64,000 nucleotides of DNA from an uncultured Alphaproteobacteria bacterium (lineage in GTDB: Bacteria; Pseudomonadota; Alphaproteobacteria; Acetobacterales; Acetobacteraceae), in contig CAWBST010000021.1 of assembly GCA_963791495.1 (NCBI GenBank), forward strand, positions 136,515 through 200,514, given 5' to 3'. Both the position numbers and the translations under genes were made by a program. This document shows positions 10,111 through 48,954 of this stretch, piece by piece (the stretch's first letter is position 1; each line of letters begins with the position of its first letter). The notes under the pieces are model-generated. The model ran no database searches. It worked only from the letters and a program-made list of their open reading frames with translations, and was not told the DNA's origin.

Positions 10111-11080
10111 ATGAGGACCCCCATGACTCTCGCCGAGCTGCGCTACCTGGTCGCGGTCGCGGACCTGCGACACTTCGGCCGTGCGGCGGAGCGCTGTCGC
10201 ATCACCCAGCCGACTCTCAGCAGCCAGTTGCGGAAGCTTGAGGAAAATCTCGGCGTGCCGCTGGTCGAGCGCACCACGCGGTTCGTGACGCTCACGCCCG
10301 TCGGCGAGGGCGTGGTGGCGCATGCGCGCCGCATCCTCGAGGAGGCAGACCAGATCTCAGCGCTGGTCCGCCATCGGCATGGCACCCTGACCAGCGTGCT
10401 GCGTCTCGGCATCATCCCGACTCTCAGTCCTTACATCCTGCCTCTCATCTTCAAGCGGCTGCACGAGACCTTTCCAGATCTTCGTCTGGTATTGCGCGAG
10501 GACCTGACCGACAACCTGCTCGACGCGCTCGAAATCTTTCGGGCTCGATGTATTGTTGATCGCTCTACCCGAGCAGGGCGGCGCCTATCGTTCGATGCCC
10601 CTATTCCGCGAGCCGTTCTGCTTCGCCTGCCCCACCGAGCACGCGCTGGCCAACCGCCCCGTGGTGACCGAACGCGAGTTGGCGCATGAGCGCCTGCTTC
10701 TGCTCGATGAGGGTCATTGCCTGCGCGACCAGGCATTGGCGGTGTGCGGCAATCGGCCTGGGAACCACGCTGATGCGAGCGATGATTTCCGCGCTACCAG
10801 CCTGGAAACCATCTCCGAGATGGTTGCGGCGGGCCTGGGCTGTACGTTGCTGCCGGCAATGGCGGTGCCACACTTGACGGCACGACATCTGCGGCTGGAA
10901 GTGCGACCCCTCCAGGCGGCGAAGGCTTATAGGCGTATCGGTCTGCTCTGGCGCGCCAGTTTTCCGCGCGGCGAAGATCTCGAGGTGCTCGGCAAATTCA
11001 TCCAGGAGCAGTTGCCAGATACGGTTGAGCCGATCGGCGCGACCGCGCCCCGCTCCTCGTCACGTCGCAATGCCGGTTAA
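10111..11080 (+). pseudogene. oxyR: OxyR (LysR-family peroxide sensor) interrupted by a +1 frameshift near 10531-10537
   Basis: ORF 10111..10689 carries the HTH (RHFGRAAERCRITQPTLSSQLRKLE). ORF 10553..11080 carries LLLLDEGHCLRDQALAVC, which has both redox Cys at OxyR spacing. Removing one A from GAAATC gives LLDALESFGLDVLLIAL, collinear with E. coli LLAQLDSGKLDCVILAL. Confidence 0.8.
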
Positions 11081-35674: not shown

Positions 35675-37285
35675 ATGGTGAACAACCTCGACCTGCTGCT
35701 GCTGCGCCGCCGCGTCGAGCACATGATGTCGCCGTGGCATCGCAGCAACGGGCCAGGCATGACGATTGGCGTGGTGCTGGGACGGGAGCTTGTCGTGCAC
35801 GAGAGCGCCGGCATGGCGAGCATCGAGCTTAGCGTGCCGATCGGTCCGGAGACGACCTTTCGCATCGCATCGGTCAGCAAGCAGTTCACCTGCGCTGCGA
35901 TCCTGCTGCTTGCGGCCGAAGGCAAGCTGTCGATCGACGACGATGTGCGACGCTATATCCCGGCGCTGCCGGACCTCGGCGATCGCATCACGCTCGCGCA
36001 CCTGATGCACAACACCTCCGGCATCCGCGACATGCTGGAGATCATGCGTCTCGGCGGCGTCGATCTCGCTCAGCCCTGCAAGGCGCAGGACCTGATGGAT
36101 GGCGTGTGCCGGCAACGCGCGCTGAACTTCGCTCCAGGCTCCCGCTATCTCTACAGCAATTCCAACTTCATGTTGCTCGGCCGCATCGTGGAGCACGTCA
36201 GCGGACATTCGCTGCGCCAATTCCTCGATCGCCGCATCTTCACGCCGCTCGGCATGAATGCAACGTGCCATGTCGAGCGACCGGACGAGGTGGTGCACGG
36301 TCAGGCGACAGGCTACTTCCCCGCGTCTGGTGGCGGCTGGACGCGGGCGCAACATGGCTTCCCGCTGAGCGGCGAAGGCGGGCTGGTCTCCTGTGTCACG
36401 GACCTTGCGCTGTGGCACGCTAACTTTGCCTCACCGCGTGTCGGTGGCACAGGCCTGGCGAATGCGCTCACCACGATGACGCCGTTCAGCAATGATCAGC
36501 CGAACACGTACGCGCGCGGACTGCGCGTCAAGATGCACCGCGGCGTCCGCACGATCGGCCACGACGGACTTTGGCCCGGCTACAAGACGAGTTTCGTGCG
36601 CATTCCAGATCACGATGCCGCGGTGATCTGCATCAGCAACGATGCTACATCAGACCCGCACGATCTCGCGTTTCAGGTCGTCGATGCATTGGTCGAGGGG
36701 AAGCCAGGTGTGCATGCGATTCCGCCGATGCCGCCCGTGGAGCTGTTGCCCGGCCGGTATCTGAATCGCGACACCGGCGCGACTGCCGATGTGACCCTCG
36801 ACGAGGCTGGCCGCGTTACCGCATGCACGCATGGCGTGGCCTTCACCACGATCCCCACCGGCGACGGCCGTCTTGCCACCAGTCGCGGCTCGGCCGACTT
36901 CACCATGCAGCTCGTCGCTGAGGACGTGCTGGATGTGGAACGCGATGCGGGCATGCACGAGACATTGCGTCGTGTTTCCGGCAATGCCGAGCTGCCTGCC
37001 GACCTGCCGGGCCGCTATCACAACGCGGACATGGCGGCGACCTGGACAATCGGTACAGGCGAGACGGGCATGACACTCCACGTCGCCGGACCGCTCCTGA
37101 TCGCTGCTCGCTGGGAGATCGAGGCTATCGAAGGCGACTTCATCCGAATCGTCTCGCCGACGCCGCTGTTTCGAGCATGGCTCGATGGGCGCGTCCTGCG
37201 CGACGCTGGCGGCAGAATCAGCGGACTGCACATCGATGGTGGCCGCGTCAGGAACCTCTTCTTCGCCAAGGAGCCGGCGCGATGA
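35675..37285 (+). CDS. Beta-lactamase-fold serine hydrolase (S12; D-aminopeptidase-like, extended C-terminus)
   Basis: SxxK (SVSKQF) and YxN (YSNSNF). 536 aa, with about 180 extra C-terminal residues as in DAP-type enzymes. Confidence 0.8.
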   Translation: MVNNLDLLLLRRRVEHMMSPWHRSNGPGMTIGVVLGRELVVHESAGMASIELSVPIGPETTFRIASVSKQFTCAAILLLAAEGKLSIDDDVRRYIPALPDLGDRITLAHLMHNTSGIRDMLEIMRLGGVDLAQPCKAQDLMDGVCRQRALNFAPGSRYLYSNSNFMLLGRIVEHVSGHSLRQFLDRRIFTPLGMNATCHVERPDEVVHGQATGYFPASGGGWTRAQHGFPLSGEGGLVSCVTDLALWHANFASPRVGGTGLANALTTMTPFSNDQPNTYARGLRVKMHRGVRTIGHDGLWPGYKTSFVRIPDHDAAVICISNDATSDPHDLAFQVVDALVEGKPGVHAIPPMPPVELLPGRYLNRDTGATADVTLDEAGRVTACTHGVAFTTIPTGDGRLATSRGSADFTMQLVAEDVLDVERDAGMHETLRRVSGNAELPADLPGRYHNADMAATWTIGTGETGMTLHVAGPLLIAARWEIEAIEGDFIRIVSPTPLFRAWLDGRVLRDAGGRISGLHIDGGRVRNLFFAKEPAR

Positions 37286-37301
37286 TGCGATGCCTGCGCG
37301 C

Positions 37302-38468
37302 TCAATACGACTTCGGCAAATCGAGTACGCGCTCGGCGAGATAGCTCAAGATCAACTGCGGACTGACCGGTGCGATGCGCGGGATCAGCAATTCACGCAG
37401 GTAGCGCTCGACGTGGTACTCCTGCGCATAGCCCATGCCGCCATGCGTCATAACGGCCTGCTCGCAAGCCCGGAAGCCAGTCTCACCGGCGAGGTACTTC
37501 GCCGCATTGGCTTCGGCACCGCACGGCTGACCCTGATCGTAGAGCCAGGCGGCCTTCATCACCATGAGGTTGGCCGCCTCCAGCTCGGCCCAGCATTTTG
37601 CAAGCGGATGCTGGATTGCCTGATTCTGCCCGATCGGCCGGCCGAACACCACGCGCTCGCGCGCATAGCCTGAGGCACGCTCCAGCGCAGCGCGCCCGAT
37701 GCCGATCGCCTCGGCTGCGACCAGCACGCGTTCGGGATTGAGGCCGTGCAGCAGAGTGCGGAACCCCTCGCCTTCCTCACCGATGCGGTCTTCCTCCGGC
37801 ACCTCCATGTCCTCAAAGAACACCATGTTCGAGTCGACCGCGTGCCGCCCCATCTTGTGGATCAGCCGCACCTCGGCATGGGCGCGGTCGAGCGTGGTGT
37901 AGAACAGCGTCAGCCCATGGCTGTGACGCTTCACCTGATCGAGCGGCGTAGTGCGCGCCAGCACCAGGATCTTGGTCGCGACCTGCGCCGTCGAGGTCCA
38001 GATCTTGGCGCCATTGATCACGTACCGATCGCCGCGGCGCTCGGCACGTGTGGTGATCTGCGTGGTGTTGAGGCCGGCATTCGGCTCGGTGACGCCGAAG
38101 CAGGCCTTGTCTGTGCCGGCGATGATCGGCGGCAGCATGCGCCGCTTCTGCGCCTCGGTCCCGAACACCACGACCGGGTTGAGGCCGAAGATGTTGAGGT
38201 GGATCGCCGATGCGCCCGACATGCACGCGCCGGATTCGGCCACCGCCTGCATCAGGATCGCGGCCTCGGTGATGCCGAGACCGGCGCCACCATACTCCTC
38301 CGGCATGGCGATGCCGAGCCAGTTACCCTCCGCCATGGCGGCGAAGAAGGCGTCCGGGAAGGTCGCGGTCCGGTCGCGTTCCAGCCAGTAGGCGTCATCG
38401 AATCGGGCGCACAGCTTCAGCACCTCGTCGCGGATCTGCTGCTGCGGGTCGGTCAGGGCGAAGTCCAT
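37302..38468 (-). CDS. Acyl-CoA dehydrogenase
   Basis: 388 aa. [11 protein letters not shown], and C-terminal [23 protein letters not shown]. Confidence 0.9.
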
Positions 38469-38513
38469 CAGGCGGGCCTTTCAGACGCTGCCAGGGTGGG
38501 CCATATTTGTCCC

Positions 38514-39497
38514 ATGTACAGTCAGGCGCTCAACGCCGCCACCGACCCTGCCGACGCCAGCGAAGCGGGCGGGCGGTTTCAGGCGTGTATCGACGCCGAG
38601 GAGCGGATCGAGCCGAACGACTGGATGCCGGAGGCGTATCGCCGCACGCTGGTCCGCCAGATCAGCCAGCATGCGCATTCGGAGATCGTCGGCATGCTGC
38701 CGGAGGGTAACTGGATCACCCGTGCGCCGACGCTGCGTCGCAAGGCGGCACTGCTGGCGAAGGTGCAGGACGAGGGCGGGCATGGGCTTTATCTTTATGC
38801 CGCAGCGGAGACGCTGGGTGTGACGCGCGAGGAGTTGGTCGAGCAGTTGCTGACCGGCCGTGCGAAATACTCGTCGATTTTCAACTATCCGACTCTAAGC
38901 TGGGCGGACATCGGCGCCGTCGGCTGGCTGGTGGACGGCGCGGCGATCATGAACCAGATCCCGCTGTGCCGCTGTTCCTACGGACCCTATGCGCGAGCGA
39001 TGATCCGCATATGCAAGGAGGAATCGTTCCACCAGCGCCAGGGGTTCGAGATCATGACCACGCTGGCGCGCGGCTCGCCCGAGCAGCAGGCGATGGCGCA
39101 GGATGCATTGAACCGCTGGTGGTGGCCAAGCCTGATGATGTTCGGCCCACCTGACTCGCAGTCGCAGCATTCCGACGCGTCCATGCGCTGGAAGATCAAG
39201 CGCTTCACCAATGACTCGCTGCGCCAGAAGTTCGTCGATGCGACTGTGCCGCAAGGCCATTATCTGGGACTGACATTCCCTGATCCGGAACTGCGCTACA
39301 ACGACGTGACCGGGCACTGGGAGTTCGGCGCGATCGACTGGGACGAGTTCCGTCGCGTTCTCGCCGGCGATGGTCCATGCAATCGCGAACGCCTCGCGGC
39401 GCGGCGTCGTGCGCATGAGGATGGGGCGTGGGTACGCGAGGCGGCGCTCGCCTATGCCGCGAAGCAGAGGGCCGCGCAGCATCGCGAGGCCGCCTGA
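38514..39497 (+). CDS. paaA: 1,2-phenylacetyl-CoA epoxidase subunit A
   Basis: [44 protein letters not shown] is near-identical in pattern to E. coli PaaA. Start at the internal ATG 38514. The upstream part of the ORF is antisense to the acyl-CoA dehydrogenase gene. Confidence 0.93.
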
Positions 39498-39499
39498 GC

Positions 39500-39787
39500 A
39501 TGACCGAGCACACCACCCCGTTGTGGGAGGTCTTCATTCGCGCACGCACGGGCCTGGCGCACAGGCATGTCGGCTCGGTGCACGCGGCTGACGCAACGCT
39601 GGCACTGCAGGCGGCGCGCGACGTCTATACGCGTCGCGGTGAAGGGCTTTCCATCTGGGTCGTGCCGTCGGCAGCGATCACGGCCTCAGATCCGGCGGAC
39701 AAGGAGATGCTGTTCGAGCCGACGGCCTCGAAGATCTACCGTCACCCCACGTTCTATGAAGTGCCCGACGAAGTGGACAACATGTAA
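39500..39787 (+). CDS. paaB: 1,2-phenylacetyl-CoA epoxidase subunit B
   Basis: MTEHTTPLWEVFIRARTGLAHRHVGSVHA...IWVVPSAAI. Starts 2 nt after the paaA stop. Confidence 0.9.
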   Translation: MTEHTTPLWEVFIRARTGLAHRHVGSVHAADATLALQAARDVYTRRGEGLSIWVVPSAAITASDPADKEMLFEPTASKIYRHPTFYEVPDEVDNM

Positions 39788-39836
39788 TGCGGTGGTGCAG
39801 GCTCTTCTGCCTGACGCACCGCAGGGATGAAACGCG

Positions 39837-41096
39837 ATGAATGCTCCGGTCAGTGTCGATACGCGCGAGGAAGCCTGGTCGCTTCCGCTCGACAGGATCG
39901 ACGTCAGCCAGCCGCGGCTTTACCAAGACGACATCTGGCATCCGTATTTCGAACGCCTGCGCCGGGAAGATCCAGTGCACTGGTGCGAGGACGGGATGTA
40001 CGGCTCGTACTGGTCGGTGACCAAGTACAAAGACATCATGCAGGTGGATACTAACCAGAAGATCTATTCGTCCGATGCCATGATGGGCGGCATCGTGCTG
40101 CGCGATACGCCGATGGATTATCGCCGGCCGAGCTTCATCTCGATGGATCAGCCGAAGCACGACGAGCAGCGCAAGGTGGTGTCGCCTGTCGTCGCACCGA
40201 TGAACCTGCAGCGTCTCTCCGGTACGATCCGCGAGCGCACGCAGCGGGTGCTGGATGGACTGCCGCGCGGCGAGGCGTTCGACTGGGTGGATCGCGTGTC
40301 GATCGAACTCACGACGCAGATGCTTGCCACGCTGTTCGACTTTCCGTTCGAGGAGCGGCGGAAGCTCACCTACTGGTCGAACGTTGCGACCGTGAACACG
40401 CGCGCCGGCACCGAGATCGATTCTGACGAGAAACGCGACGCGGTTTTGCAGCAGGCGATGGAATACTTCGTCCAGCTCTGGCACGAACGGTCGAAACAGG
40501 AGCCGCGTCCTGACCTGATCTCCATGCTGGCGCATGGCGAGGCGACACGCGATTTGCCGTCGCGGCCGCGGGAATTCATGGGCAACATCCTGCTGCTGCT
40601 GATTGGCGGCAATGACACGACGCGGAACTCGATGTCCGGGGGGCTGTGGGCGCTACACAACAATCCTGACCAGTATCGCAAGCTGATGGACAACCCCGCA
40701 CTGGTGACGAGCCTGGTGCCAGAAATCATTCGCTACCATACGCCAGTGATTCACATGCGGCGTACGGCGCTGGAGGATGCCGACCTGGGCGGCAAGCGCA
40801 TCCGCAAGGGCGACAAGGTCGCGATGTGGTACATCTCGGGCAACCGCGACGATGAGGCGATCGAGAACGCCAACGACTTCATCATCGATAGAGCGCGGCC
40901 ACGGCAACATCTGTCGTTCGGCTTCGGCATCCATCGCTGCGTCGGCAACCGCCTGGCCGAGCTGCAACTGACGATACTGTGGGAGGAGATCCTGCAGCGC
41001 TTTCCGATGATCGAGGTGCTCGAACCGCCGCAGCGCGCTTACTCCAACATCCTGCGTAGCATCGCCTCGATGCCGGTTCGTATTCCTGTGCACTGA
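39837..41096 (+). CDS. Cytochrome P450, CYP153-like
   Basis: I-helix LLLLIGGNDTTRNS, EXXR (EIIRYHTP), and Cys ligand loop HLSFGFGIHRCVGNRLAE. N-terminus SYWSVTKYKDIMQVD. All resemble CYP153 hallmarks as I recall them. Confidence 0.88.
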   Translation: MNAPVSVDTREEAWSLPLDRIDVSQPRLYQDDIWHPYFERLRREDPVHWCEDGMYGSYWSVTKYKDIMQVDTNQKIYSSDAMMGGIVLRDTPMDYRRPSFISMDQPKHDEQRKVVSPVVAPMNLQRLSGTIRERTQRVLDGLPRGEAFDWVDRVSIELTTQMLATLFDFPFEERRKLTYWSNVATVNTRAGTEIDSDEKRDAVLQQAMEYFVQLWHERSKQEPRPDLISMLAHGEATRDLPSRPREFMGNILLLLIGGNDTTRNSMSGGLWALHNNPDQYRKLMDNPALVTSLVPEIIRYHTPVIHMRRTALEDADLGGKRIRKGDKVAMWYISGNRDDEAIENANDFIIDRARPRQHLSFGFGIHRCVGNRLAELQLTILWEEILQRFPMIEVLEPPQRAYSNILRSIASMPVRIPVH

Positions 41097-41100
41097 GGAC

Positions 41101-41859
41101 GTGGCGGCAACCACCTCAATCACTGTCGAAGAGACGCCGCTCGTCCTCCAACTTCTGTCCAGGGCGGATGATGCGCTGATCCTTGGGCATCGTCTGTCGG
41201 AATGGACCGGCCACGCGCCGATGCTCGAGGAGGAGCTGGCGCTGGCCAACATCGCGCTCGATCTCATCGGCCAAGCGCGGACCCTATACGGCTATGCGGG
41301 CACGCTCACCGGCCACACCGAGGACGAGCTTGCCTATCTGCGTGACGTCCCGGCATGGCGGAACTGCCTGATCGTGGAGCTTCCGAATGGCGACTTCGCC
41401 TTCAGCATCGCGCGCCTTCTGCTGGTCTCGGCGTTCGTCGATCCGTTCTGGCGCGCGTCAGCCGCGTCCACCGACAGCACGATTGCCGCCATCGCTGCGA
41501 AGGCGGAGAAGGAGACCTCTTATCACCTGCGGCACGCGGCTGAGTGGCTGATTCGCCTTGGCGACGGCACCGCGGAAAGTCATCGTCGCGCGCAGACCGC
41601 GCTCGATGATCTGTGGCCTTACACGGGCGAACTGTTCACCGACCTGGCGAGTGATGCCGGAATAGTCCCGGACCCGATATCGCTCCGTGATGCCTGGAAC
41701 GCTACCATCGACAGTGTCCTGGCACGCGCCACGCTTGCGCGTCCGCCGGATGGCTGGAGGCAGTCGGGCGGGCGGATCGGACGGCACACCGAACACCTCG
41801 GGTACTTGTTGGCGGAGATGCAATTCCTTCAGCATACCTATCCAGGCGCCACATGGTAG
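41101..41859 (+). CDS. paaC: 1,2-phenylacetyl-CoA epoxidase subunit C
   Basis: GTG start 4 nt after the P450 stop. LILGHRLSEWTGHAPMLEEELALANIALDLIGQAR. Confidence 0.85.
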   Translation: MAATTSITVEETPLVLQLLSRADDALILGHRLSEWTGHAPMLEEELALANIALDLIGQARTLYGYAGTLTGHTEDELAYLRDVPAWRNCLIVELPNGDFAFSIARLLLVSAFVDPFWRASAASTDSTIAAIAAKAEKETSYHLRHAAEWLIRLGDGTAESHRRAQTALDDLWPYTGELFTDLASDAGIVPDPISLRDAWNATIDSVLARATLARPPDGWRQSGGRIGRHTEHLGYLLAEMQFLQHTYPGATW

Positions 41860-42341
41860 ACGCCAACTCGCTGCGCGAACGTGCACTTGCCGCACTGGAA
41901 GAGGTCACCGATCCTGAGATCCCGGTACTGACGATCACCGATCTCGGGATCCTGCGCGACGTTTCGGTGCGCGATGGCGTGGTAGAGGTCACCATCACGC
42001 CCACCTACTCCGGCTGCCCTGCGATGAACATGATCACGCTAGAGATCGAAACGGCACTCGCTCGCGCCGGCATCAAGGCGCGTGTGCACACAACCTTATC
42101 GCCCGCCTGGACGACCGACTGGCTGACGGATGCAGCGCGCCGCAAGCTTGCAGCTTTCGGCATCGCCCCGCCGGAACACGCTGCAGCACGTCGCGCGCTG
42201 TTTGGTGAGGCAAGTCCTGCCTGTCCGCAGTGCGGCAGCGCCGACACCGAACAGATCAGCGAGTTCGGCTCGACCGCGTGCAAGTCCCTGCACCGCTGCC
42301 GCACATGTCGCGAACCGTTCGATGCCTTCAAGTGCCATTGA
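41853..42341 (+). CDS. paaD: Phenylacetate-CoA oxygenase subunit PaaD (PaaJ)
   Basis: VTDPEIPVLTITDLGILRDV, TPTYSGCPAM, and C-terminal CPQCGS...CRTC. Overlaps the paaC stop. Confidence 0.85.
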   Translation: MVDANSLRERALAALEEVTDPEIPVLTITDLGILRDVSVRDGVVEVTITPTYSGCPAMNMITLEIETALARAGIKARVHTTLSPAWTTDWLTDAARRKLAAFGIAPPEHAAARRALFGEASPACPQCGSADTEQISEFGSTACKSLHRCRTCREPFDAFKCH

Positions 42342-42358
42342 TCAACAGGGAGGAAGCC

Positions 42359-42751
42359 ATGGCGAGACAGGCGATCATCACCGACAAGGCGCCGAAGCCG
42401 GGCGGACATTTCGCGCAGGCGATAGCGGTGGAAGCGACCGGCAGGCTGGTGTTCATCTCCGGCATGGTCGCACAGCGGCCGGACGGCACGATCGCCGGCA
42501 TTGGCGACATCGAGGCGCAGACGCGCCAAGTCTGCGAGAACGTCAAGGCCGCGGTGGAGGCCGCGGGTGGCACGCTCGCGAATGTCTGCCGCGTCGATGT
42601 CTATGTGCGCAACATGGAGAATCTGGCGCCAATTCATAAGGTGCGGCGCGAGTACTTTCCGTCTCCGCCGCCGGCCTCGACGCTGGTCGAGGTGAGCAAG
42701 TTCACTCATCCGGATTACCTCATCGAGATGAGCGCGATCGCCGTCGTGTGA
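42359..42751 (+). CDS. RidA/YjgF-family reactive-intermediate deaminase
   Basis: 130 aa. APKPGGHFAQAI..GRLVFISGMVA...IEAQTRQVCENVKAAVEAAGG.L.NV.RVDVYV. SD GGGAGGA. Confidence 0.88.
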   Translation: MARQAIITDKAPKPGGHFAQAIAVEATGRLVFISGMVAQRPDGTIAGIGDIEAQTRQVCENVKAAVEAAGGTLANVCRVDVYVRNMENLAPIHKVRREYFPSPPPASTLVEVSKFTHPDYLIEMSAIAVV

Positions 42752-42787
42752 CGCTTCGGCGGCGGCCGAAGCGACGCGCGTGGATGC

Positions 42788-43795
42788 ATGGCGTTTGGCA
42801 ATGCATATCGGACCGACACCGATGGAGATACGCCAATGCCAGCATTGCTCGACCCGCGCGAGGGGCACTTCCGCATTCCCAGCAGCCATGCCGGGCTATC
42901 GCTGTTCCTCCGCTATCTGCCGCCGCCCAACGGAATGCCGACAAAAGGCGTTGTGCTTTACGTCCACGGCGCGACGTTTCCCTCCGCGCTGTCGATCGCT
43001 CACCGCTTCGATGGCCGTTCCTGGCGCGACGAACTCTGCGCGGCGGGCTTTCATGTCTGGGGATTCGACTTTCATGGCTACGGCCACTCGGATCCCTATC
43101 CCGGCATGTCTGAACCGCCAGAGGGGCGCGAACCACTCTGCCGCGCGGATGACGCCAGCCGGCAGCTGGAACAAGCCGCGCGTTTCATCTGCCAGCATCA
43201 CGCGACCGAGCGGATTTCCATTGTCGCGCATTCCTGGGGTACGATCGTTGCCTGCCACTTTGCCGCGCGCTGCTCGGAGCTGGTTGACCGGCTGGTGCTG
43301 TTCGGGGCCATCGCACGCCGAAATGGCACGGCCGCGCATGGCTATCCGGCATGGCGGCTCGTCTCGCTGCAGGATCAGTGGCAGCGTTTCACTGCGGAGG
43401 TTCCCCCAGACGAGCCGCCCGTGCTGTCGCGCCGGCATTTTGCCGAATGGGGCGAGCGCTATCTGGACAGCGACGCGGCGAGCTGGACGCGGACGCCACC
43501 CAGTGTGCAGACGCCGAGTGGACCTTGGTTCGACATTGGCCGCGCCTGGGCAGGCGATCTTGCCTACGATCCTGCGCTCGTCCGCGCGCCAGTGGCGATC
43601 ATTCGCGGCGAGTGGGACAGCATGTGCACCGATGCCGACGCCGCCTGGCTGTTCGGCGCCTTCACCTCATCGCCGATCCGGCGCGATGTGAAGATCAGCC
43701 GCGGCACGCATCTGATGCATCTGGAGACAAGCCGCTACGCGCTGTATCGCGAGACGCAGAATTTCCTCGCGGGCGGCGATGCGCCCCCTACATAG
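42788..43795 (+). CDS. Alpha/beta-fold hydrolase
   Basis: VVLYVHGATFPS, FDFHGYGHSD, and nucleophile elbow VAHSWG. Confidence 0.7.
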   Translation: MAFGNAYRTDTDGDTPMPALLDPREGHFRIPSSHAGLSLFLRYLPPPNGMPTKGVVLYVHGATFPSALSIAHRFDGRSWRDELCAAGFHVWGFDFHGYGHSDPYPGMSEPPEGREPLCRADDASRQLEQAARFICQHHATERISIVAHSWGTIVACHFAARCSELVDRLVLFGAIARRNGTAAHGYPAWRLVSLQDQWQRFTAEVPPDEPPVLSRRHFAEWGERYLDSDAASWTRTPPSVQTPSGPWFDIGRAWAGDLAYDPALVRAPVAIIRGEWDSMCTDADAAWLFGAFTSSPIRRDVKISRGTHLMHLETSRYALYRETQNFLAGGDAPPT

Positions 43796-43853
43796 CGCGG
43801 CGCCGCGGCGGCGGTTAGACTTGCGCCAATCTATCCGCCTAGGGAGACCGTCC

Positions 43854-44735
43854 ATGAGCGTCCTGCGAGGCAACAACGGACCGCGCTATAAGCACAGCGC
43901 CGATGAGCCGGTCGCTTACGACACGATCACCGTCGACAAGCTGACGCCGATCATCGGCGCGGAGATCGGCGGCGTCGATCTCTCGCAGCCGCTGGGCAAC
44001 CAGACCTTCGAGGAGATCCACCGCGCGCTGGCGGAGAACCTGGTGATCTTCTTCCGCGACCAGCACATCAGCGAGGACCAGCACCTCGATTTCGGCCGCA
44101 GCTTCGGAAAACTGCACCTCCATCCCGCGGCGCCACACGCAGCGGGCCATCCGGAGCTGATGGTTATCCATGCCGACAAGGATTCGCCGCGCGCCAACGG
44201 CGAAGGCTGGCACAGCGATGTGTCCTGCGACGTGGAGCCGCCGATGGGCAGCATCCTGTATATCCGCAAGTGCCCACCGCGCGGTGGCGACACGCTGTTC
44301 GCCTCGATGTATGCCGCCTACGAGGCGCTGTCGGACCGCATGAAGAGCTATCTGGAGGGCCTCACTGCGATCCATGATGGCGAGGACGCGTATCGCGGCA
44401 CCTACGCCAACTATGGTGTCGCGGACAAGCCGACCTATCCGCGCGCCGAACATCCGGTAATCCGCACGCATCCGGTGACCGGCAAGAAGGCACTTTACGT
44501 CAACCGCGGCTTCACCAAGCGCATCGTCGGTGTTCCGCGCGACGAGAGCAACGCGATCCTGCACTACCTGTGGGACATGGCGGAGGATCCGTTGTTCCAG
44601 TGCCGTTTCCGTTGGCGGGAGAACTCCATCGCGTTCTGGGACAACCGCTGTGCGCAGCATCGCGCCATGTGGGACTACTGGCCGCACACGCGCTCGGGCC
44701 ATCGCGTGACCGTGCAGGGCGACAGGCCGGTCTGA
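43854..44735 (+). CDS. TauD/TfdA-family Fe(II)/2-oxoglutarate dioxygenase (second copy)
   Basis: GEGWHSDVSCD (HxD), GGDTLFASM, and WDNRCAQHRAMWDY. ATG behind AGGGAG. Confidence 0.85.
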   Translation: MSVLRGNNGPRYKHSADEPVAYDTITVDKLTPIIGAEIGGVDLSQPLGNQTFEEIHRALAENLVIFFRDQHISEDQHLDFGRSFGKLHLHPAAPHAAGHPELMVIHADKDSPRANGEGWHSDVSCDVEPPMGSILYIRKCPPRGGDTLFASMYAAYEALSDRMKSYLEGLTAIHDGEDAYRGTYANYGVADKPTYPRAEHPVIRTHPVTGKKALYVNRGFTKRIVGVPRDESNAILHYLWDMAEDPLFQCRFRWRENSIAFWDNRCAQHRAMWDYWPHTRSGHRVTVQGDRPV

Positions 44736-45121
44736 TGGCGAATGCAGCGACCTCGCCACTGGGCGTCTATCTCGAACATCTGGAGAAGGGCGAACTGGCC
44801 TATCAGTTCAGCCCCGAGGCCAATGCCGCAGTGTTCTATCCTCGCGTGATCTGCCCGTTCACCGGCAGCGACAAGCTGCAATGGCGGGTAAGCAAGGGGA
44901 TTGGCACCGTGCACGCCACCACCGTCGTGTATCCGCAGAGGGGCGATCCCTACAACGTCGCGCTGATCGACATCGACGAGGGCTTCCGCATGATGAGCCG
45001 TGTCGAGGACATCGCGCCGTTGGACGTCCGCATCGGCATGAGGGTGAAGTTCCGCGTCCACGCCGCGGAGGGCGATGAGCCGCCCTATCCGGTATTCACG
45101 CCGGCGGATGCTTCGCCATGA
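44735..45121 (+). CDS. DUF35-type OB-fold protein (thiolase partner)
   Basis: 128 aa. Overlaps the stop of tauD and the start of the thiolase-like gene. OB-fold segment GTVHATTVVY...YNVALIDIDEGFRMMSRV. Confidence 0.75.
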   Translation: MANAATSPLGVYLEHLEKGELAYQFSPEANAAVFYPRVICPFTGSDKLQWRVSKGIGTVHATTVVYPQRGDPYNVALIDIDEGFRMMSRVEDIAPLDVRIGMRVKFRVHAAEGDEPPYPVFTPADASP

Positions 45122-46272
45122 ACGGCCTCACGCGCGGCAGCGCAGCGATCGTTGGCGCGGCCGAATCGGATATCGGTGCGGTCGCCGCCAACATGAGTCC
45201 GCTCGACCTGATGGCCCAGGGCATCCATCGCGCGCTCGCAGACTGTGGGCTGAAACTGAGCGACGTCGACGGCATCTTCTGCGCTGCCACGCAGGCGCGA
45301 ACGTCGGCGATGTCGCTCTGCGAGTATCTTCGCCTTCCCTCGGCGTATACCGACTCCACCATCGTCGGCGGCTCGTCTTTCGAGGTGCACGTCGCGCACG
45401 CCCAGGCGGCGCTTGCGGCGGGTCTGTGTTCTGTCGCGGTGATCGCGTATGGCAGCACACAGCGCACAGTTGGCAGACGGCAGGCTTCGGCGCGCGAGTA
45501 CAATCCATACGAAACACCATTCAGGCCGTTCCTGCCCTCCACGGCGTACGCGCTCACAGCCTCGCGTCACATGCACGAATACGGCACTACGCGCGAACAG
45601 CTGGCCGAAGTGGCGGTGGCCGCGCGCGAATGGGCGCTGTTGAACCCGGTCGCATGGGAGAAGAAGCCTCTCACCATCCAAGAGGTGCTGTCGGCACGAC
45701 CGATCAGCCATCCGTTCACCGTACGCGACTGCTGCCTGATCACCGATGGTGGCGGCGCCATCGTGATGATGTCAGCCGACCGCGCACGAAGTCTGGCGAA
45801 GCCTCCGGTCTATGTCCTCGGCTGCGGCCAGGCAATCACGCACGCGTCGATCTCCTCGATGCCGGACCTCACCGTCACCGGAGCACGCGAATCAGGCGCC
45901 GCCGCCTATCGCATGGCGCAGATGCGTGAGACCGACATCGACGTGCTGGCGCTGTATGACGCGTTCACGATCAATACGATCTTGTTCCTCGAGGATCTGG
46001 GGTTCTGCCCAAAAGGCGAGGGCGGACGATTCGTCAGCGGCGGCCGCATCGGACCGAAGGGCAGCCTGCCCGTCAACACCAATGGCGGCGGGTTGTCCTA
46101 TTGCCATCCCGGCATGTACGGACTGTTCCTGCTGATCGAGGCAGTGCGTCAGTTGCGTGGCGAGTGTGGTGAACGCCAGGTCGCACAGGCGCAGACCGCG
46201 CTCGTGCACGGCAATGGTGGCGTGTTGTCGGCGCAGGCAACGGTGATCCTGGGGACGCAGGCTACGGTGTAG
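45118..46272 (+). CDS. Thiolase-like protein (SCP-x / lipid-transfer type)
   Basis: 384 aa. AIVGAAESD N-terminus and C-terminal VNTNGGGLSYCHPGMYG. The DUF35 + thiolase pairing is typical. Confidence 0.8.
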   Translation: MNGLTRGSAAIVGAAESDIGAVAANMSPLDLMAQGIHRALADCGLKLSDVDGIFCAATQARTSAMSLCEYLRLPSAYTDSTIVGGSSFEVHVAHAQAALAAGLCSVAVIAYGSTQRTVGRRQASAREYNPYETPFRPFLPSTAYALTASRHMHEYGTTREQLAEVAVAAREWALLNPVAWEKKPLTIQEVLSARPISHPFTVRDCCLITDGGGAIVMMSADRARSLAKPPVYVLGCGQAITHASISSMPDLTVTGARESGAAAYRMAQMRETDIDVLALYDAFTINTILFLEDLGFCPKGEGGRFVSGGRIGPKGSLPVNTNGGGLSYCHPGMYGLFLLIEAVRQLRGECGERQVAQAQTALVHGNGGVLSAQATVILGTQATV

Positions 46273-46600
46273 CTCCGTCGGTCAGCGTGTAGGTCCGCAT
46301 CGCGCAGATATCGACGTTGCGGCGGATTTCGCTGGTTCCGTCGGTGAATACCAACTTGAAGTCGTAGCGGCAGTCGCCGGCCGGATCCTCCAGGTCGAGC
46401 TGCACGAAGTGATTGGGCTGCAGCCCGCGCCGGCTGAGCAGGTCCACATTCCACTCGTCAGTTCCCGCGTGAGAGGCGAAGAACGAGGCCACTGTGGTGC
46501 GCGAACTGTTCACCAGGTTCAGATCGCGCGTGAGGTGGCTGGCCTGTGCCACGGTCGCAAGGCTTGTCATCGCCAGCAGGGCGATCATGGTCCTGAACAT
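46262..46600 (-). CDS. Small secreted hypothetical protein
   Basis: Signal peptide MFRTMIALLAMTSLATVAQA. Two Cys (CRYDFKLVF...VDIC). Tail-to-tail 11-nt overlap with the thiolase-like gene. Confidence 0.5.
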   Translation of the reverse strand: MFRTMIALLAMTSLATVAQASHLTRDLNLVNSSRTTVASFFASHAGTDEWNVDLLSRRGLQPNHFVQLDLEDPAGDCRYDFKLVFTDGTSEIRRNVDICAMRTYTLTDGATP

Positions 46601-46723
46601 CGGCGCCGGCCTCCTCGCCAGGCTTCGCGACGGGGAGGCATATCCGAGTATGGACGGCCTGCTGAACTGGAAGGATGCCCTGTGCGCATCCCATCATTTT
46701 CCTGTTTTGTTCTTACTTCAAGG

Positions 46724-47590
46724 TTACAGTTCAGTGCTGTGCCGAATCAATTCTGCCGCTCGACGAACGCCGCCGAAGGTGAAGACATGCAGACCTGCAA
46801 TCGGTGCATCGGCGGTTTCGCCGGCCACCAAGTCGGCGATCAATGCTTCCGGGCCGGCCTCCGTCATGATGCGCGCGAATGCCGTGTGGCCGCGTGCCAG
46901 CGCACGCAGCGACGCACCGATGCCACAGCGGATGGCGAACTTGGCGAGCGTGGCCACAGTCGCGGGACCGGCAACGCCGACATGCACCGGGCAGTCCATG
47001 CCATGCGCGCGTTGGGCCGCGATCCAGCGCAGGATCGGCTGCGCCTCGAAGCCGAACTGCGTCACCAGCGATATCGCAAGCCCACCCTGTCTCGCCAGCG
47101 CCACCTTCGCCTGCAGCGCCGCATCCAGGGTGTGCGCGTCGATCGCCGGATGACCCTCGGGATAGCCGCCGAACGAGACCTGCGCGATGCCGTGCCGCTC
47201 CACGACACCGGTCGCCAGCAAATCGAGGCTGGCTCGGAACGGCCCCACGGGACTGTCGTCGCCACCGATCAGCAGGATGCGATCGACCGCCGCCTCGCCC
47301 GCCGCGCGCTGCAGGAAGTCGCTGGCCTGGGTGAAACTCGCCAGACGCCGGGCAGCGACATGCGGCACGGGGACAAAACCGGCGCGACGCAGCCGCGCAC
47401 AGGCAGCGACGATGTCATGGTGTGTCACGCTGGGCGGGTGGTTGACGAATACGGTCGTGCCAGGAGCGAGCAGCTTGCGCAGCGCATCGCCGGCGAGTTC
47501 GTCACGCGGCGACAGTTCGAGCGAACAGTCGGCGATCAGCGCCGCTGTGCGCTGATGCTGCGTGGCTGTGAGGGTGGTTGCGTCCATCAT
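46724..47590 (-). CDS. Divergent methylenetetrahydrofolate reductase-family protein
   Basis: From ATG 47590 (MMDATT...): CSLELSPRD occupies the place of the MetF FEFFPP motif. GGYPEGHP resembles MetF YPExHP. TGATG overlap with the upstream gene. Confidence 0.65.
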   Translation of the reverse strand: MMDATTLTATQHQRTAALIADCSLELSPRDELAGDALRKLLAPGTTVFVNHPPSVTHHDIVAACARLRRAGFVPVPHVAARRLASFTQASDFLQRAAGEAAVDRILLIGGDDSPVGPFRASLDLLATGVVERHGIAQVSFGGYPEGHPAIDAHTLDAALQAKVALARQGGLAISLVTQFGFEAQPILRWIAAQRAHGMDCPVHVGVAGPATVATLAKFAIRCGIGASLRALARGHTAFARIMTEAGPEALIADLVAGETADAPIAGLHVFTFGGVRRAAELIRHSTEL

Positions 47591-48954
47591 CAGGAGTCCC
47601 GCTTGCGCGAGATCACGTAGGACTCGTCCCAGAACCATAGGCCGCCGCGTTCTTGCAGCACGGCCTTGGTCGCTTCGAGATAGGCGCCACTGCTGATCGC
47701 TTCGGACAGTCGCTGGTCCTCGATCTGCGCGACATAGACCGCGGCATTCCACGCGGCGAACAGCGTCGAGGTGCCGATCGTCTCGCTGATCTCGCTTGGC
47801 AGCGTGTGCATGTCGTAGCGGAACAGCGAGCGCGCATCTGCGTAGGCGCCAAAGTTCAGGTCACGCCCGGCGCTGCCGAGTTCCGCCTTGGTCGCGCGCA
47901 GCAGGGCGTGGCGGTCGGTGGTGAACGGATTCTCGCCCGGCCAGATGCGCTGGATGATCTCGAGCCCCGGATCGTCGCCGTGCGAGTGGATGGCGATCAG
48001 CCTGCCGCCCGGCGCCAGCGCGCGCGCCAGCGGCGCCACAACCCGGCGCGCCTTGAACTCAAGTGACGCACGCGCGCGATAGGGCTGCGAGGCGATCACC
48101 AGGTCGTACTCGGCCTCGGTGAAGCCACGGCGCGGGCGGACCTGATCCAGCAGGAACCTGTGGTCCTCGCGGTAGATCACCAGAACGACCGGCTTCTCGT
48201 AAACCGGATTGCCGCTGGCGCCGCTCACGCGGGCGCGCCAGTTCTCGGAGAGAAACGGGCCCAGATCGGTGATCTGGGTCTCGAACTCGTGCGCGGTGTT
48301 GCCGGTGAGCGAAAGCTCGTGCCAGACGAGGCTGGTGGCGGCATTGACCGAGTTCGGCTTCAGCCACGGCGCCTCGGAATAGTACATGTTGGTCATCACC
48401 AGCACCGTCGCGGGATGCTCGAACAACCGGTCGGGCATCTTCTCCAGCACGAGGCGCACATCCTCGAGGCTGACCTCCTTGCCGACGATGTAGAACGGCA
48501 TGGTCGGGAAGCGGTTGTGCATCGCACGCATGGTCCGGGCGAGCACCGTGCCGTCGCCCATGCCCGCGTCGAACAGGCGCACTGCCGGCGGGCGCGGATG
48601 GATGTTGGCGAGCTCCATGCCGACGCGTTGGGCGATCACCCACTTCTCGCCGCAGGTGGTGACGAACAGCAGGTATTTCTGCCGGTTGTCGTAGAAGCGG
48701 AAGTTGTGCGTGGTGCGGGTGGTTGGCTGCGGCGGCGCCGATGGCGGGCGGACGGCGGCGCCGTTGAGGATGCGGTGCGGCTCACGGGCGATGAAGGCGC
48801 GCACCCGGTCCACCGTATCGGTGGTGACGCGTCCGCCGAGGCGCAGCCGGCTGACCAGCTTGCCGTCGTTCACCGCGAGGCGCCCGAAGGTGGACTCGGC
48901 CATGCGGGCGCTACGGCAGAACTCGGCTATGTCGTGCAGGAGCGTTTCGCTCAA
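47590..48954 (-). CDS. Hypothetical 454-aa protein: N-terminal HTH-like segment plus class I methyltransferase-like core
   Basis: TTG start 7 nt after GGGAGG. N-terminus IAEFCRSARMAESTFGRLAVNDGKLVSRLRLGG. RLFDAGMGDGTVL resembles SAM motif I. LAPGGRLIAIHS resembles a post-motif region. Confidence 0.5.
   Translation of the reverse strand: MSETLLHDIAEFCRSARMAESTFGRLAVNDGKLVSRLRLGGRVTTDTVDRVRAFIAREPHRILNGAAVRPPSAPPQPTTRTTHNFRFYDNRQKYLLFVTTCGEKWVIAQRVGMELANIHPRPPAVRLFDAGMGDGTVLARTMRAMHNRFPTMPFYIVGKEVSLEDVRLVLEKMPDRLFEHPATVLVMTNMYYSEAPWLKPNSVNAATSLVWHELSLTGNTAHEFETQITDLGPFLSENWRARVSGASGNPVYEKPVVLVIYREDHRFLLDQVRPRRGFTEAEYDLVIASQPYRARASLEFKARRVVAPLARALAPGGRLIAIHSHGDDPGLEIIQRIWPGENPFTTDRHALLRATKAELGSAGRDLNFGAYADARSLFRYDMHTLPSEISETIGTSTLFAAWNAAVYVAQIEDQRLSEAISSGAYLEATKAVLQERGGLWFWDESYVISRKRDS

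Follow-up and report, generated by a model that had tools for sequence, protein, structure and literature searches.

We analyzed a cluster of ten genes in an uncultured member of the Acetobacteraceae, in which the genes for phenylacetyl-CoA 1,2-epoxidase (paa genes) are interrupted by a gene for a cytochrome P450 of the CYP153 family. The cluster lies in a 64-kb stretch of DNA (the window; G000:C21:136515-200514) from a metagenome-assembled genome (MAG) of 6.7 Mb with 64% G+C, assembled in 30 contigs and 97% complete, whose close relatives are uncultured soil Acetobacteraceae MAGs. Genomes are labeled G### (the source genome is G000), contigs C##, and compared loci L###. The gene identities and locations reported here, the synteny, the P450 phylogeny, and the purifying selection are direct observations. 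We consider the arrangement to be a patchwork of known modules, with a probability of about 0.7: a PaaABCD epoxidase that would draw on PaaE in trans, and a class I CYP153 that would draw on a ferredoxin reductase and ferredoxin (FdR-Fdx) in trans. The novelty lies in a single, genus-wide insertion of a CYP153 gene between paaB and paaC; the separate modules are known.

The ten genes occupy the + strand at window positions 38514-46272, in the order paaA-paaB-P450-paaC-paaD-Rid-hydrolase-TauD-DUF35-thiolase, and a divergent gene precedes them. Window positions, strands, and assignments are as follows.

37302-38468, - strand: acyl-CoA dehydrogenase (ACAD; Pfam Acyl-CoA_dh_N/M/1), divergent from paaA with a 45-bp spacer
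38514-39497, + strand: paaA, catalytic di-iron subunit of phenylacetyl-CoA 1,2-epoxidase (TIGR02156, 539 bits; cut-off, 280)
39500-39787, + strand: paaB, bridging subunit (TIGR02157, 127.8 bits; cut-off, 85.45)
39837-41096, + strand: CYP153-family cytochrome P450, between paaB and paaC (PDB 3RWL, CYP153A7, 572 bits)
41101-41859, + strand: paaC, structural partner of PaaA (TIGR02158, 274.3 bits; cut-off, 133.35)
41853-42341, + strand: paaD (TIGR02159, 192 bits; cut-off, 108.15; Pfam FeS_assembly_P and Zn_ribbon_PaaD)
42359-42751, + strand: Rid/YjgF-family protein (PF01042; TIGR00004, 85.7 bits; cut-off, 106.25)
42788-43795, + strand: alpha/beta-fold hydrolase, accessory (Pfam Abhydrolase_1, Hydrolase_4, and Abhydrolase_6)
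43854-44735, + strand: TauD/TfdA-family Fe(II)/2-oxoglutarate dioxygenase (PF02668, 246 bits; NF007104, 284.8 bits; cut-off, 313)
44735-45121, + strand: DUF35/ChsH2-type OB-fold protein, thiolase partner (PF01796)
45118-46272, + strand: SCP-x-type thiolase (NF004811 [PRK06158], 615 bits; cut-off, 421; PF22691; PDB 4U4E, 391 bits)

The spacing is tight throughout. With the most plausible start codons, which all junction figures assume, three junctions overlap: paaC/paaD by 7 nt, TauD/DUF35 by 1 nt (TGATG), and DUF35/thiolase by 4 nt (ATGA). The remaining junctions are gaps of 2 to 58 nt. The ATG of paaB lies 2 nt past the paaA stop, 49 nt separate paaB from the P450 gene, and the P450 stop lies 4 nt ahead of the GTG start of paaC, with a GAGGA motif resembling a ribosome-binding site upstream of paaC. 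A promoter and terminator scan of window positions 37000-47500 found sites no more numerous than in shuffled sequence. Gene content and layout both agree with an earlier interpretation of this DNA (the sequence-only reading), which had listed the Rid, hydrolase, TauD-type, DUF35, and SCP-x thiolase genes after paaD and had described three overlaps among otherwise short gaps.

The epoxidase and its probable, distant reductase

PaaA, PaaB, PaaC, and PaaD each exceed their curated equivalog cut-off, and the whole genome contains a single PaaA and a single PaaC, both within the window. The alignment of PaaA to its E. coli counterpart (PDB 3PVR) scores 497 bits and shows the HSE, DE(G/A)GH (DEGGH here), VDGAA, and EESFH segments retained, which we take to be the carriers of the di-iron ligands. 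As the sole copies in the genome, PaaA-D would be expected from their sequences to form a normal phenylacetyl-CoA 1,2-epoxidase. Contiguity of paaABCDE, which is a feature of gene order and not of the enzyme, is lost at two points: the P450 gene intervenes between paaB and paaC, and paaE lies on a different contig.

The only PaaE above the cut-off in the genome is encoded at C2:152234-153280 (TIGR02160, 432.4 bits; cut-off, 420.8) and has the FAD_binding_6, NAD_binding_1, and Fer2 domains. Its gene is flanked by a DsbA-like gene and an APH(6)-family kinase gene, with mfd and recG nearby. The protein is 63 to 70% identical to PaaE encoded inside contiguous paaABCDE operons of sister genera, and the next-best PaaE paralogue within G000 reaches only 27% identity. 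The sequence-only reading had correctly observed that paaE does not follow paaD, and the window has no TIGR02160 match. It had also considered that a canonical paaE might lie just outside the window on the same transcript; paaE does exist, but on C2 and not on the same transcript. Electrons would reach the epoxidase in trans from this orphan PaaE, along the path NAD(P)H -> FAD -> [2Fe-2S] -> di-iron site.

Other steps of the pathway are encoded elsewhere again. The region C10:4526-7077 carries paaK (745 bits), paaI (141 bits), and paaG (331 bits; cut-off, 345), for a ligase, a thioesterase, and an isomerase. Over C10:4526-11103 (L118), paaK-paaI-paaG is divergent from a gene for a fused 1190-aa protein of the indolepyruvate:ferredoxin oxidoreductase family, and this set looks like an entry route from phenylpyruvate to phenylacetyl-CoA. 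A pcaF/paaJ thiolase (704 bits) is encoded on C28, adjoining enolase. We considered the DUF35-thiolase pair of the cluster as a substitute for PaaJ, which is unnecessary with this canonical pcaF/paaJ present.

The embedded CYP153 and its probable redox partners

The closest solved structure to the embedded P450 is CYP153A7 (PDB 3RWL, 572 bits), in agreement with the CYP153-like assignment made earlier. Twelve further P450 chains score 360 to 549 bits, of which three carry an alkane hydroxylase or CYP153 annotation, and CYP125 comes next at 254 bits. In the alignment the heme-thiolate motif reads FGFGIHRCVG (tested as FGFGIHRCVGNRLAE) and the I-helix motif GGNDTTRN (GGNDTTRNSM). The protein would be an ordinary class I CYP153 hydroxylase.

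Six-frame genome searches, which did not include flavodoxin, found no Fer2, NAD_binding_1, Pyr_redox_2, Fer4, Fer4_15, or PaaE match in the window, as expected from the sequence-only reading that no ferredoxin or ferredoxin reductase is encoded there. The further suggestion that the oxygenases are without electron donors did not hold once the whole genome was searched for paaE and FdR/Fdx genes: in addition to PaaE on C2, an FdR-Fdx pair is present on C17. At C17:156402-157976 lie genes for an FdR of the putidaredoxin reductase type (Pyr_redox_2 and Reductase_C) and a 108-aa [2Fe-2S] Fdx. These share 57 to 86% identity with the pairs located ahead of CYP153 genes in L036, L041, L050, L060, and L065, and the pair has no adjacent P450 gene in G000. 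In six genus genomes a C17-type FdR and a CYP153 paralogue are only about 0.4 kb apart, an interval large enough for an Fdx gene, and the FdR-Fdx pair is retained in 29 of 35 genus genomes. G002 (94% complete, five contigs) encodes neither a CYP153 nor a C17-type FdR, and this joint absence fits a functional link between the two. We infer from this homology and distribution that the embedded CYP153 is probably served in trans by the C17 pair.

The C17 pair has two oxygenase-type neighbors. A partial TauD-family open reading frame (ORF) of 219 aa, which covers only the C-terminal two-thirds of the Pfam model, lies just upstream (C17:158287-158946, - strand; L150 8288-8947), and a 2OG-Fe(II) oxygenase gene lies downstream.

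G000 encodes three further CYP153 paralogues, on C13 and C22, with no reductase gene adjacent to any of them. Directly upstream of two tandem paralogues on C22 is an Adx-type [2Fe-2S] Fdx gene (C22:192614-192938, - strand; L120 about 10615-10939) whose product is 82% identical to the C17 Fdx. Its frame shifts after about 83 codons and reads into the P450 as a 537-aa ORF. We rejected an Fdx-CYP153 fusion here on account of this frameshift and regard the Fdx as a separate gene that is either a pseudogene or altered by an assembly indel. The fifth P450 of the genome (C9:91321-92686) is 29% identical and is not a CYP153; a Fer4_15-type ferredoxin gene lies immediately downstream of it.

Synteny, selection, and the genes behind paaD

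We compared the arrangement across the family, with one genome per genus, and within the genus, with 35 genomes. In the family survey, paaA and paaE lie within about 3.5 kb of each other in 25 genera and are clearly unlinked in 6; a further 5 genera are too fragmented to judge. Three genomes have paaAB followed by unrelated genes (G059, G122, and G126), and three have paaABCD without paaE (G065, G145, and G151). Given these unlinked genera and split clusters, fragmentation of the paa oxygenase cluster is common in the family. Within the genus, PaaE is encoded in 30 of 35 genomes, including all 14 of high quality, and paaE and paaA are never neighbors where both are present. The position of paaE is itself stable: of seven other genus genomes in which its surroundings were inspected, six have DsbA-like, SBP5, or mfd genes beside it.

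The order paaAB-P450-paaCD-Rid-(hydrolase)-TauD-DUF35-thiolase is found in at least 17 genus assemblies from several studies, and recurrence in this many independent MAG assemblies shows that the arrangement is not an assembly artifact. The stretch after the P450 gene is inverted in G017 and G169. In 8 of 32 genus genomes, paaCD is apart from paaAB-P450; among four separated loci inspected, three retain Rid-TauD-DUF35-thiolase behind paaCD, and G020 has only paaCD-Rid. G002 has ACAD-paaAB without the P450 gene.

The history of the P450 gene was examined in a phylogeny of 96 CYP153 sequences, where a single clade (SH-like support, 100) unites the paa-embedded copies and also includes L032, a locus without paa genes within 10 kb. 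This clade falls within a larger one (support, 99) together with copy 3 of FdR-Fdx-CYP153x4 arrays. Such arrays, with FdR-Fdx followed by four tandem CYP153 genes, are found in related Acetobacteraceae MAGs at L036 5792-12500, L041 1935-8900, and L060 5767-12500. In the loci examined from other genera, P450 homologues below about 80% identity are never adjacent to paa genes. The tree placement points to a single event in which one array copy moved into the paaB/paaC junction and left its redox partners behind: a CYP153 gene would have been copied once from an FdR-Fdx-CYP153 array in the ancestor of the genus.

All eleven genes are under purifying selection and none is a relic. Compared with five orthologous loci, dN/dS is 0.01 to 0.23 across the eleven genes at dS values of 0.4 to 1.1, with 0.02 to 0.23 for paaA-D (0.045 to 0.060 for paaA), 0.05 to 0.12 for the P450 gene, and 0.03 to 0.05 for the thiolase gene. 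The reading frames of the G000 cluster are all intact. These values, together with the conserved metal-site segments of PaaA, dispose of the earlier concern that paaA-D could be nonfunctional relics. In three other genus genomes the embedded P450 matches as two overlapping pieces (G004:C13:360816-362073, G014:C9:151034-152291, and G016:C2:276285-277536), which reflects frameshifts arising either from long-read indel errors or from decay.

The Rid gene is the most conserved of the set (96 to 98% identity; dN/dS, 0.01 to 0.03). The product belongs to the Rid/YjgF family by PF01042, so the family part of the earlier RidA call stands. We rejected an archetypal RidA, an imine/enamine deaminase: the score against TIGR00004 ("detoxifying hydrolase") is below the cut-off, and the protein has PAS where the RidA-like structures 2DYY, 1X25, 1XRG, and 2CSL have PAR, placing Ser at the conserved Arg, which we take to correspond to the substrate-binding Arg105 of Salmonella RidA. 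The hydrolase is among the least conserved members (69 to 85% identity) and was not matched in loci L022, L026, and L059. It has no match among solved structures, and its Pfam matches are generic.

The TauD-type dioxygenase, correctly recognized in the sequence-only reading, scores 238 bits against E. coli TauD (PDB 1GQW). In this alignment WHSDV pairs with WHTDV across the HxD iron motif, and the distal His is kept, as are both Arg residues of the C-terminal RxxxR, which would bind 2-oxoglutarate and sulfonate. The HPVYPH of TauD aligns to HPAAPH, replacing Tyr73 with Ala, and there is a one-residue insertion near Asn95; Tyr73 and Asn95 are presumably the residues that bind the taurine amine. 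Since the protein falls below the equivalog cut-off and Tyr73 is aligned to Ala, taurine is not established as the substrate, and the enzyme is probably a sulfonate-type dioxygenase rather than a proven taurine dioxygenase. Homologues with 81 to 83% identity occur in Reyranella and on other soil contigs, beside sulfatase, TctC, and IclR genes or beside an aminotransferase gene; one locus with the aminotransferase also has a luciferase-like monooxygenase gene and sox genes. No DUF35-thiolase or paa genes adjoin the homologues in those outside loci.

Among PDB entries, the thiolase is closest to the uncharacterized thiolase 4U4E, and BbsB scores 141 bits. Homologues of the DUF35-thiolase pair (83 to 84% identity) are adjacent among housekeeping genes in L156, a neighborhood that fits a general rather than an aromatic-specific role for the pair. 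L157 has the order Rid-DUF35-thiolase, with a Rid protein 72% identical to that of the cluster. In the simplest account, an older Rid/DUF35/thiolase unit received the TauD-like gene and the hydrolase gene and ended up behind paaCD. The downstream genes need not act on phenylacetate intermediates.

The genus shares the divergent pairing of ACAD (-) with paaA (+) with four other genera (G059, G074, G122, and G126), which hints at a role for the ACAD in the paa pathway of the family. No NCBIfam model reaches its cut-off for this ACAD. Loci with the pair include L125, L127, L130, and L135, one of which has canonical paaABCDE. Beyond the ACAD gene, on the side away from paaA, lie a gene of the beta-lactamase family, clpA, clpS, and a gene for a phasin. 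Beyond the thiolase, on the opposite strand, lies a gene for a 454-aa protein (window 47590-48954, - strand) that is 87 to 92% identical across the genus and has no Pfam or NCBIfam match. An overlapping 342-aa ORF lies downstream of it (window 46724-47752, - strand) and has a weak MTHFR-like Pfam match. Both often accompany the thiolase end of the cluster.

Readings of the arrangement and known systems

The patchwork reading holds that both the phenylacetate pathway and the CYP153 system are dispersed around the chromosome in an uncultured genus of soil Acetobacteraceae. The pairing of each reductase with its oxygenase, the co-transcription, and all substrates are what we infer rather than observe. 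Several observations weigh against this reading. The 4-nt P450/paaC gap, the GAGGA motif, and the three overlaps suggest that the ten genes are co-transcribed in G000, and co-transcription would fit a shared function. The linkage of paaAB to the P450 gene is kept in nearly all genus genomes, and that of paaCD to Rid in all those inspected. The recognized paa pathway is incomplete: genome-wide, we found no PaaZ above the cut-off (fused PaaZ, TIGR02278, best score 120 bits) and no alternative oxepin-CoA hydrolase above the cut-off (NF046063, best score 202 bits; cut-off, 300). The best crotonase and aldehyde dehydrogenase candidates are generic or have other functions, such as succinate-semialdehyde dehydrogenase, and an unassigned gene of the cluster could fill the ring-opening step. 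Finally, G010 (95% complete) keeps the embedded P450, and no C17-type FdR was found in it at E <= 1e-90; with this exception, the FdR assignment is not universal.

These points bear differently on the rival explanations. The strongest rival is an integrated route, in which an upper pathway is physically joined to the phenylacetyl-CoA catabolon: the CYP153 would terminally hydroxylate a phenylalkane, phenylalkanoate, or alkylbenzene, after which side-chain shortening to phenylacetyl-CoA would fall to the ACAD and the DUF35-thiolase pair, and PaaABCD(E) would open the ring. CYP153 enzymes hydroxylate terminal positions, and breakdown of even-chain phenylalkanoates yields phenylacetyl-CoA. The operon-like spacing with its 4-nt P450/paaC junction, the paaAB-P450 linkage in at least 17 species, the purifying selection on the P450 gene, the presence of acyl-CoA dehydrogenase and thiolase genes at the flanks, and the lack of a ring-opening enzyme among the recognized genes would all agree with such a route. 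We nevertheless consider it unlikely, as its supposed halves are unlinked in 8 of 32 genus genomes, G002 has paaAB without any CYP153, and L032 has a P450 from the clade of embedded copies and lacks paa genes within 10 kb. The ACAD-paaA pairing, being present in four other genera without the P450, predates the P450 insertion, and homologues of the DUF35-thiolase and TauD genes occur elsewhere in unrelated contexts. The route also has no role for the TauD-like or Rid genes, and the cluster lacks a CoA ligase, a hydratase, and a hydroxyacyl-CoA dehydrogenase. For the same reasons, namely that the modules separate within the genus and have homologues in unrelated contexts, we also regard as unlikely the sequence-only reading's proposal that three oxygenase chemistries plus thiolysis make up one undescribed route. 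Slightly less probable again is the specific form in which the linkage is functional and CYP153 and PaaABCD(E) share one route, for example, with terminal hydroxylation of alkylbenzenes or phenylalkanoates feeding phenylacetyl-CoA, and in which a gene trailing paaCD, most plausibly the Arg-less Rid or the hydrolase, encodes the oxepin-CoA ring opener.

It is quite improbable that one reductase is shared, with the orphan PaaE serving both PaaABC and the embedded CYP153. Sharing would account for the retention of PaaE at a neutral site and for the location of the P450 gene within the paa genes; reductase domains of the FNR/[2Fe-2S] type can drive P450s, as in CYP116B-type fusions; and the conservation of PaaE at one site across the genus and the case of G010 would both suit it. 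It is opposed by the dedicated CYP153-type FdR-Fdx, homologous to the pairs of CYP153 operons and kept in 29 of 35 genomes, and by the fact that PaaE is also unlinked in other genera that have no embedded P450. We give almost no weight to artifact or decay, that is, a chimeric MAG contig or paa and P450 genes that are nonfunctional relics. G000 is indeed a MAG with apparent frameshifts, such as that in the Fdx gene at C22:192614-192938, and the P450 is in two frames in G004, G014, and G016, but the identical gene order in at least 17 assemblies from different studies, the intact frames with dN/dS of 0.01 to 0.23, and the retained catalytic motifs of PaaA and the P450 all speak against it.

On the patchwork reading, which we prefer, selection can maintain a multicomponent oxygenase even when its subunit genes occupy three or more loci and its reductase is encoded at a distance, and a reductase missing from an operon is weak support for novel chemistry. 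The CYP153 gene stably lodged between paaB and paaC across an abundant, uncultured genus from soil is then a small oddity. A functional linkage would connect the hydroxylation of alkyl-aromatics with the phenylacetyl-CoA pathway and could bring to light a ring-opening enzyme other than PaaZ.

Each module has known counterparts. The TauD-like protein resembles E. coli TauD in its iron ligands (HxD...H) and the Arg residues of RxxxR and differs in the change of Tyr73 to Ala and in its score below the cut-off. The DUF35 and thiolase genes resemble known DUF35 and SCP-x pairs, such as the benzoylsuccinyl-CoA thiolase BbsAB (PDB 7PXP) and archaeal thiolase/DUF35 complexes, in having an OB-fold DUF35 gene immediately upstream of, and translationally coupled to, a gene for a Thiolase_C_1 thiolase. 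IpfDE of ibuprofen degradation is another such pair. The pair described here differs in that its closest structure is the uncharacterized 4U4E and its homologues lie among housekeeping genes.

The epoxidase resembles PaaABC(D)E of E. coli K-12 and Pseudomonas in its subunit scores, the metal-site segments of PaaA, and the domains of PaaE, and differs in having its subunit genes at three or more places, with an orphan paaE and a P450 gene splitting paaB from paaC. Fragmented paa clusters are known elsewhere, and the paa genes of Burkholderia cenocepacia are at several loci. The present case is like these in that pathway genes are distributed among several loci, and the reductase gene is sometimes absent from the cluster. 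It differs in that the oxygenase subunits themselves are split (paaAB, paaCD, and paaE) with a foreign oxygenase gene between them. A 2026 survey found paaA, paaB, and paaC to be strongly conserved in position, with PaaD and PaaE domains also occurring outside the paa locus (PMC13186573), and Martin and McInerney (2009) describe paa clusters as recurrently reassembled (PMC2653477). Our literature search found no report of a P450 gene within paaABC. The embedded P450 is like CYP153A7 (P450pyr) and the FdR-Fdx-CYP153 operons of Alpha- and Betaproteobacteria in its sequence and in its heme-thiolate and I-helix motifs. Arrays in relatives place FdR-Fdx ahead of one to four CYP153 genes, whereas here the CYP153 gene stands away from its redox partners, inside the genes of the paa oxygenase.

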